The notes beneath the pieces were generated by a model that saw nothing but the letters and a program-made list of their open reading frames with translations, was not told where the DNA came from and did not search any database. Both the position numbers and the translations under genes were made by a program. From Escherichia coli (GTDB lineage: Bacteria > Pseudomonadota > Gammaproteobacteria > Enterobacterales > Enterobacteriaceae), in the NCBI RefSeq assembly GCF_024700885.2, contig NZ_CP117016.1: a DNA stretch of 64,000 nucleotides; one strand, given 5' to 3'. This document shows, piece by piece, positions 38,085 to 39,047 of this stretch (its first letter is position 1; each line of letters opens with the position of its first letter).

Positions 38085-39047
38085 ATGACCGAATCAACAA
38101 CCTCCTCCCCGCATGATGCGGTATTTAAAACCTTTATGTTCTCGCCCGATACGGCGCGAGATTTTCTCGAAATACATCTGCCAGAGCCGCTGCGCAAGCT
38201 TTGCAACCTGCAAACCTTACGCCTGGAACCCACCAGCTTTATTGAAAAAAGTTTACGCGCTTACTACTCGGATGTTTTGTGGTCGGTGGAAACCAGCGAC
38301 GGTGACGGCTATATCTACTGCGTGATTGAACATCAAAGTTCTGCAGAAAAGAATATGGCTTTTCGACTAATGCGCTATGCCACTGCCGCCATGCAACGTC
38401 ACCTGGATAAAGGCTATGACAGAGTTCCGCTGGTGGTGCCATTGCTGTTTTATCATGGCGAAACCTCGCCCTACCCGTACTCACTCAACTGGCTGGATGA
38501 GTTTGACGATCCGCAACTTGCCCGGCAGTTGTACACCGAAGCTTTTCCGTTGGTGGATATCACCATCGTACCTGACGATGAGATCATGCAACATCGGCGT
38601 ATAGCTCTGCTGGAACTGATTCAAAAGCATATTCGCGACCGCGATTTAATCGGTATGGTCGACAGGATTACCACGCTTTTGGTTAGAGGCTTCACTAATG
38701 ACAGCCAGCTACAAACGCTGTTTAATTATCTGCTGCAATGCGGCGATACCTCCCGTTTCACCCGTTTTATTGAGGAGATTGCCGAACGTTCACCACTACA
38801 AAAGGAGAGATTAATGACTATTGCTGAACGGCTGCGGCAGGAAGGACATCAAATTGGCTGGCAGGAAGGTAAATTAGAAGGCTGGCAGGAGGGGAAATTG
38901 GAGGGTTTGCAGAAAGGCAAAGTAGAAGGTATGCATGAACAAGCCATTAAAATTGCCTTGCGCATGCTGGAACAGGGCATTGATCGTGACCTGGTGCTCG
39001 CAGCCACCCAGCTAAGCGAAGCCGATCTGGCAGCGAATAACCACTAA
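38085..39047 (+). CDS. rpnB: Rpn-family recombination-promoting nuclease / transposase_31-like protein (YfaD/RpnB), 320 aa
   Basis: N-terminus [35 protein letters not shown] typical of the Rpn/YhgA family; C-terminal GWQEGKLEG tandem repeats. Confidence 0.85.
38855..38930. repeat. Tandem roughly 24-bp repeats in the rpnB 3' region (encode GWQEGKLE-type units)
   Basis: GGCTGGCAGGAAGGTAAATTAGAA / GGCTGGCAGGAGGGGAAATTGGAG / GGTTTGCAGAAAGGCAAAGTAGAA, three consecutive related units. Confidence 0.6.

Follow-up and report, generated by a model that had tools for sequence, protein, structure and literature searches.

The five rpn genes of Escherichia coli K-12 all make small RpnS proteins from internal starts (Zhong 2023, PNAS, PMC10400941). 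The resulting Rpn_L/Rpn_S pairs, described for RpnA-E and RpnP2 as an intragenic toxin-antitoxin system with an anti-phage function (PMC10400941, PMC5350276), are the closest known counterpart of the locus presented here. Each of RpnA_S and RpnB_S prevents its cognate long protein from acting as a toxic nuclease, and in the case of RpnC the long protein is neutralized only by a small protein with an equal repeat number (Zhong 2023, PMC10400941). The repeats in question are 4 amino acids long, lie in helix 1 of RpnS, start 8-20 residues after the initiating Met and vary in number between strains; RpnA_S itself is a dimeric three-helix bundle (PDB 7TH0). RpnE_L, RpnE_S and YpaA (synonym RpnE_Ss) proteins have all been detected in K-12, the latter two by ribosome profiling and by tagging (SPA), and rpn/rpnSs fusions have already been reported (Zhong 2023, PMC10400941).

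Two further systems share features with this locus. The TAEL repeats of HsdS in EcoR124I/EcoR124II, used as a comparison in the discussion of Zhong 2023 (PMC10400941), are likewise in-frame 4-aa repeats whose number in a helical spacer changes a defence-related specificity. However, the HsdS repeat sets a DNA-recognition spacer (N6 vs N7), whereas protein-protein pairing is proposed for RpnE, and the proteins are unrelated. A helical segment with glycine at every fourth residue is also found in FliH/YscL, with the motif AxxxG(xxxG)mxxxA, in which the number m of glycine repeats varies between bacteria (PMC2674601), and in the deca-GX3 motif of Yae1-Lto1 (PMC4523923). The motif mediates the formation of dimers or heterodimers, as demonstrated for Yae1-Lto1.

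We analyzed a stretch of 64,000 nucleotides of E. coli DNA, hereafter called the window, and describe a tandem repeat at the 3' end of one of its genes. Compared with the Rpn_L/Rpn_S system, we find no difference in kind. Gene, locus and internal Shine-Dalgarno/ATG are the same, and so are the 4-aa (12-nt) repeats, which begin 8 residues after the internal Met, in the predicted helix 1, and vary in number among strains. The combination of an N-terminal domain with rpnE_Ss (ypaA), as seen in the window, is one of the fusion classes of Zhong 2023 (PMC10400941). The allele itself is characterized by 8 units and by the absence of a separate ypaA. Neutralization has been demonstrated for RpnA and RpnB, and an effect of repeat number for RpnC; RpnE would play a corresponding role by analogy.

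Identity and neighborhood of the gene

The full-length reading frame, RpnE_L, extends from 38085 to 39047 on the plus strand and encodes 320 aa. A YhgA-like / PD-(D/E)XK nuclease-type domain occupies aa 8-209 (38106-38711, plus strand), where the Pfam family PF04754, Transposase_31 / YhgA-like, is matched with an E-value of 7.7e-88 over profile positions 1-202 of 203. At orthologue level, the protein exceeds the 583-bit cutoff of the NCBIfam equivalog NF007418 with 713.9 bits and stays under that of the RpnA model, also 583, with 423.7 bits. Upstream, glpC ends at 37891; downstream, yfaU (39088-39891, minus strand) is convergent with our gene, and the 40-bp gap between the two contains a terminator-like G+C-rich hairpin (39055-39081, minus strand). 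The gene found between glpC and yfaU in K-12 MG1655 is b2244, that is rpnE (yfaD), with 900 bp and 299 aa. From the profile matches and K-12 synteny we assign the gene to rpnE (yfaD), the RpnE orthologue in the Rpn/YhgA-like (PF04754) family. An earlier note on this DNA had placed the gene in the Rpn family, as do PF04754 and the above-cutoff NF007418 match, but called it rpnB. This name is wrong: b2244/yfaD, beside glpC, is rpnE, as RpnE corresponds to YfaD and RpnB to YfcI (Kingston 2017, PMC5350276).

The gene is nearly universal in the species: 5,420 of the 5,426 complete genomes have it. The window copy is 100% identical to that of an independent complete genome, strain 1190, where it is annotated rpnE (WP_000140532.1). 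Residues D11, D63, E82, Q84, R94 and D165 are all kept in the window protein; the list comes from RpnA mutagenesis and the PD-(D/E)XK signature (Kingston 2017, PMC5350276), and the RpnA signature residues D11, D63, E82, Q84 and R94 are found at unchanged positions in both K-12 RpnE and the window protein.

PGAP labels rpnE an 'ISNCY family transposase', and the RefSeq label for K-12 rpnE is 'inactive recombination-promoting nuclease-like protein'. The appropriate name would be rpnE (yfaD), with a gene within the gene. Beside yfaU lies an MFS transporter frame (39908-41092, minus strand) of 394 aa (1185 bp), with the same length in strain 1190 and in two avian pathogenic (APEC) strains of our sample, L011 and L012; the corresponding yfaV of K-12 and of most other sampled strains has 1290 bp.

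A tetrapeptide repeat probably read in two proteins

The repeat array consists of eight 12-nt units (38835-38930, plus strand), each encoding a tetrapeptide of the form xxxG, so that glycine occurs at every fourth residue eight times running. This hypervariable region starts 20 nt upstream of the start given in the earlier note, which had described three tandem units of roughly 24 bp at the 3' end of the gene. Such a higher-order period does exist (38859-38930, plus strand, three copies). Tandem Repeats Finder places it at 38856-38929 (period 24, 3.1 copies, 76% matches, score 85), and the lag-24 self-match reaches 38/50 at 38856-38857 only, which is the maximum of the whole 64-kb window (mean 13.4, sd 3.4). 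The last six of the eight 12-nt units are the three octapeptide copies of the earlier description. Since units of two types alternate, DNA self-match at lag 12 does not rise above background (32/84, about 2 sd); the 4-residue period is thus visible in the protein and in the differences between strains rather than in DNA self-similarity.

The first two 24-nt copies encode WQEGKLEG and the third LQKGKVEG. Five nucleotide differences separate the two WQEGKLEG copies, and all five are synonymous, which points to purifying selection acting on the peptide and speaks against a duplication of recent date. On the opposite strand, a 52-aa open reading frame with a repeat of its own runs across the array (38849-39007, minus strand); most likely it only mirrors the repeat of the sense strand and is not a gene.

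The array also lies within a second, internal reading frame. An in-frame ATG at 38814 (M244 of RpnE_L) opens a frame of 77 aa that runs to the common stop (38814-39047, plus strand) and corresponds to RpnE_S, a putative intragenic antitoxin. It is preceded by the strong Shine-Dalgarno sequence AAGGAGAG (38802-38809, plus strand), which stands 4 nt before the ATG and whose GGAG core ends 6 nt before it; this internal-start region is identical in the window and in K-12. The RpnE_S frame holds the entire array, with the units starting at residue 8 and spanning aa 8-39. As far as can be judged from sequence, the window matches every element of the published RpnS description. A consensus scan of 37880-39150 found no sigma-70-like site and so does not support a promoter inside the gene; the internal start of transcription that has been published derives from K-12 dRNA-seq data (Zhong 2023, PMC10400941).

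Structural comparison points in the same direction. The only meaningful PDB sequence match to RpnE_S is 7TH0, that is RpnA_S, aligned to aa 38-75 with an E-value of 1e-3. In an AF2 model, RpnE_S forms helices at residues 3-53, 58-65 and 69-73, the first running continuously through all eight units; pLDDT averages 74.6, with moderate values of 62-65 in the array and 85-90 in the core. A Foldseek search with this model ranked 7TH0 first, with probability 1.0 and a target-normalized TM of 0.74, although with a weak E-value of 0.067. With moderate confidence, the model suggests that RpnE_S adopts a three-helix fold with a long first helix, like 7TH0. RpnE_S did not match DUF4351 of Pfam, even with the threshold relaxed to E <= 10. 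PDB matches to designed pentatricopeptide repeats (E 2.6e-9) were discarded as sums of many individually insignificant repeat matches.

The array was also hit by profiles of glycine-repeat families. FliH equivalogs of NCBIfam match it with E-values from 1e-7 to 2e-4, but with only 20.7-31.3 bits against cutoffs of 180-293, and Yae1_N (PF09811, Pfam) matches with E 7e-4 and 19.6 bits against a cutoff of 27.5. As all these matches fall under their cutoffs, we rejected membership in either family. Unlike the deca-GX3 proteins, the window has eight consecutive GX3 units, not ten, and the remaining protein is unrelated. We therefore regard the likeness to FliH and Yae1 as a resemblance of motif, not as homology; it is not mentioned in the main text of Zhong 2023 (PMC10400941).

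Variation among strains and the ypaA-type tail

The earlier note had given a length of about 299 aa for the K-12 protein against 320 aa here, and attributed the difference to extra repeat units. The lengths are correct (K-12 YfaD has 299 aa and 900 bp), and a pairwise comparison gives different lengths and different counts, with 3 units in K-12 rpnE and 8 in the window. The explanation holds for most of the excess: of its 21 aa, 20 correspond to five tetrapeptide units. The remaining residue has another source, because the C-terminal tail of the window protein is of ypaA type and is one residue longer than the K-12 rpnE tail.

This tail, of the type found in ypaA (RpnE_Ss), occupies 38982-39047 on the plus strand (22 codons plus stop) and was identified by sequence comparison: in most sampled strains the ypaA copy or the single-copy tail differs from it at 0-2 positions, and it is clearly unlike the K-12 rpnE tail, FEREIVLATTQLTDADIPNCH (..TDADIPNCH). 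Both DNA and protein alignments follow K-12 rpnE up to the array and continue with a ypaA-type tail and the downstream flank of ypaA. In K-12, ypaA is a separate small gene starting 12 bp after rpnE, within a gap of 238 bp between rpnE and yfaU; in the window, only 40 bp separate the rpnE stop from yfaU, so that no separate ypaA is present. The alignments indicate that the window carries one fused gene with a ypaA-type tail where K-12 has rpnE plus ypaA. Between array and tail, a 51-nt stretch (38931-38981, plus strand) is common to the rpnE-internal and ypaA copies. Of the other 19 sampled loci, 18 differ from it by 1-3 mismatches and L020 aligns only in part; it is likely to be the crossover zone of the rpnE-ypaA fusion.

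For the comparison between strains, we fetched 20 loci (L001 to L020) covering the span classes seen in BLAST samples; 19 have an intact array region. Units were counted between MTIAERL and [M/L][H/R]EQA. Repeat number indeed varies among strains, as the earlier note had suggested: the 20 sampled loci contain arrays of 2, 3, 4, 5, 6, 7, 8, 9 and 11 units. All sampled alleles are in frame, with glycine closing each unit. Where the 5,420 genomes were sampled systematically, the spans of the locus lie multiples of 12 bp apart. These spans, together with the in-frame alleles of 2-11 units, identify 12 nt as the unit of variation. The step that varies between strains is therefore 12 nt (4 aa), with alleles of 2-9 and 11 units, and not the 24 nt (8 aa) assumed earlier.

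Two architectures are found. In the first, a single rpnE gene is present, and all sampled genes of this kind have the ypaA-type tail. They range from 3 units and 300 aa (L005, L006) through 5 units and 308 aa (L004, O157:H7), 6 units and 312 aa (L018), 7 units and 316 aa (L017) and 8 units and 320 aa (the window and L002) to 11 units and 332 aa (L016). About 25 of 60 sampled genomes have this single-copy architecture, most of them in the 3-unit form. The window-type allele is infrequent, at most 25 of 5,420 genomes being at least 99% identical over 38700-39140; despite its rarity, it is an ordinary allele within a broad series.

The second architecture comprises rpnE and a separate ypaA (L001, L003, L007-L015 and L019), with rpnE/ypaA unit numbers of 3/4 (K-12), 4/7, 11/9, 8/5, 3/2, 8/3, 11/7, 7/4, 5/7 and 9/7. 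The two numbers differ in 10 of 10 haplotypes. This pattern is not statistically significant, as random pairing gives p of about 0.35. If RpnC-like matching of repeat numbers applies, YpaA would be non-cognate in each two-copy strain. In most of these loci PGAP annotates ypaA, from the rpnE stop, as a pseudogene ('hypothetical protein, incomplete, missing N-terminus'), even though ypaA has its own Shine-Dalgarno/ATG and its translation in K-12 has been demonstrated. The last locus, L020 (NZ_CP157104.1, strain UTME-10, 1501-3373), carries an IS2 that interrupts rpnE just after the array. The annotation of the rpnE fragment stops inside the nuclease domain, at 2133, and a remnant of the S region resumes past the IS. 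This insertion indicates that rpnE can be lost by insertion.

The origin of the window allele can be followed along the gene. L002 has the same allele. Over 38085-38450 the window shows no mismatch to the two-copy APEC strains L011 and L012, and at least 11 to all other sampled lineages except L002. From the S region through the array, the 8-unit rpnE copy of L011/L012 has one mismatch in 117 nt to the window, and the 8-unit array of L009 differs by one substitution. The affinities then change. The tail has no mismatch to ypaA of L015 but 4 in 66 nt to L011, and in the right flank (853 nt of the 38085-39900 comparison) L009 has 3 mismatches and L011 has 20. More generally, L015, L009 and L005 show 0-1 mismatches to the window in the tail and 3-7 in the right flank. 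This pattern indicates a mosaic ancestry across rpnE, with a switch between about 38450 and 39048, and fits a crossover in the 51-nt stretch at 38931-38981 that both S copies have in common. A simple deletion in a two-copy parent resembling L011 does not suffice as the origin, given the mismatches in tail (4/66 nt) and flank (20/853 nt).

A second fusion is seen in L016 (NZ_CP076687.1, strain S22EC, 586-1584), a single-copy rpnE of 332 aa with a ypaA tail. Its 11-unit array is of ST131 type, with a peptide identical to that of the rpnE copy in the two-copy loci L008 and L013, and the flanking GlpC, YfaU and YfaV have the same protein accessions as in these two loci. L016 is apparently an independent and recent rpnE-ypaA fusion.

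Proposed role of the array

We think it likely that the array is a hypervariable tetrapeptide repeat of rpnE which, being read in both RpnE_L and RpnE_S, sets the pairing of the small protein with the long one. The DNA of the C-terminal domain would be read twice, closing the 320-aa nuclease-like RpnE_L on the one hand and supplying the greater part of helix 1 of RpnE_S on the other. By analogy with RpnA and RpnC, RpnE_S would bind RpnE_L via helix 1 and hold it inactive, and the number of xxxG units would set which small protein pairs with which long one. Because both proteins share the same DNA, gain or loss of units would alter them together. Unit number may shift in 12- or 24-nt steps by slippage or unequal recombination inside the array, and also by recombination with the second copy, ypaA, where this is present. 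The window allele may have arisen in the latter way, an APEC-type (L011/L012) N-terminal domain and array being joined to a ypaA-type tail.

This reading builds on the observed anatomy of the array, in-frame internal start, helical model, strain variation and fusion architecture. Beyond these observations, a toxic RpnE_L, a neutralizing RpnE_S, a tuning of their pairing by unit number and an anti-phage role are all suggested by analogy only. The assays of Kingston 2017, which covered recombination, toxicity and SOS, detected no activity of K-12 RpnE (PMC5350276), and a look through the main text of Zhong 2023 (PMC10400941) found no data on RpnE toxicity or neutralization; the toxin-antitoxin reading of RpnE therefore rests on analogy.

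The inactivity in published assays (PMC5350276), echoed by the word 'inactive' in the RefSeq name of the K-12 protein, may also be taken to mean that rpnE is a decayed gene, and its array a neutral, slippage-prone, low-complexity linker whose length polymorphism is without consequence and not selected. The intrinsic instability of tandem 12/24-nt repeats would agree with this, as would the disruption of rpnE by IS2 in at least one strain (L020). We consider such a neutral linker quite unlikely, however, given that 5,420 of 5,426 complete genomes retain the gene, that all six functionally tested residues are kept, that all sampled alleles keep both the frame and the glycine at each fourth residue, and that 5 of 5 differences between the WQEGKLEG copies are synonymous. 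RpnE_L, RpnE_S and YpaA are, moreover, detected in K-12, and the RpnE of the Kingston 2017 assays carried its own internal RpnE_S, whose co-expression could have masked activity.

We see even less in favor of a recent, strain-specific expansion from an ancestral K-12-like gene of 299 aa, the scenario implied in the earlier note. The window does stand five units above K-12 rpnE, and its allele is rare (at most 25 of 5,420 genomes at the 99% level over 38700-39140). Yet the WQEGKLEG copies are already five synonymous differences apart, L011/L012 carry an identical 8-unit array in their rpnE copy and L009 a nearly identical one, and other lineages, ST131 among them, have longer arrays of 9 and 11 units. 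The synonymous differences and the 8-unit array of other lineages argue against a fresh expansion in the window strain. K-12 also differs in architecture, with its separate ypaA, and is not the ancestor of the window allele; its 3 units could equally be a contraction. Taken together, these points make recent expansion very improbable. Hardly any credence is left for an assembly artefact or an on/off phase-variation switch: the identical sequence recurs in the independent complete genome of strain 1190, and as the length of a unit is a multiple of 3 nt, the reading frame is always preserved when units are added or removed.

Returning to the pairing model, we may also hypothesize, tentatively and as a rather unlikely extension, that the free-standing ypaA is a recombination cassette. 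By unequal crossover or gene conversion, within its own chromosome or with incoming DNA, it would remake combinations of array and tail, and the xxxG array would be a FliH/Yae1-like GX3 helix zipper whose length serves as a pairing code. If this were true, the 3' end of rpnE would be a recombination junction. The idea builds on the change of ancestry along the window allele and on the separate fusion seen in L016.

The repeat is thus the published strain-variable polymorphism of the Rpn_L/Rpn_S system in rpnE, already known and represented here by an ordinary allele. Two observations are not found in the main text of Zhong 2023, namely the strict GX3 likeness to FliH and Yae1 and the mosaic ancestry of the locus; they leave this classification unchanged. 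The gap in length to K-12 is normal allelic variation combined with loss of the separate ypaA by fusion. The questions raised are those of the 2023 paper: how the array gains and loses units, and which selection favors such change. In the published model, repeat number in a helix is a specificity determinant that matches a self-encoded antitoxin to its nuclease in a candidate anti-phage system, and the array is among the fastest-changing protein features across E. coli strains.
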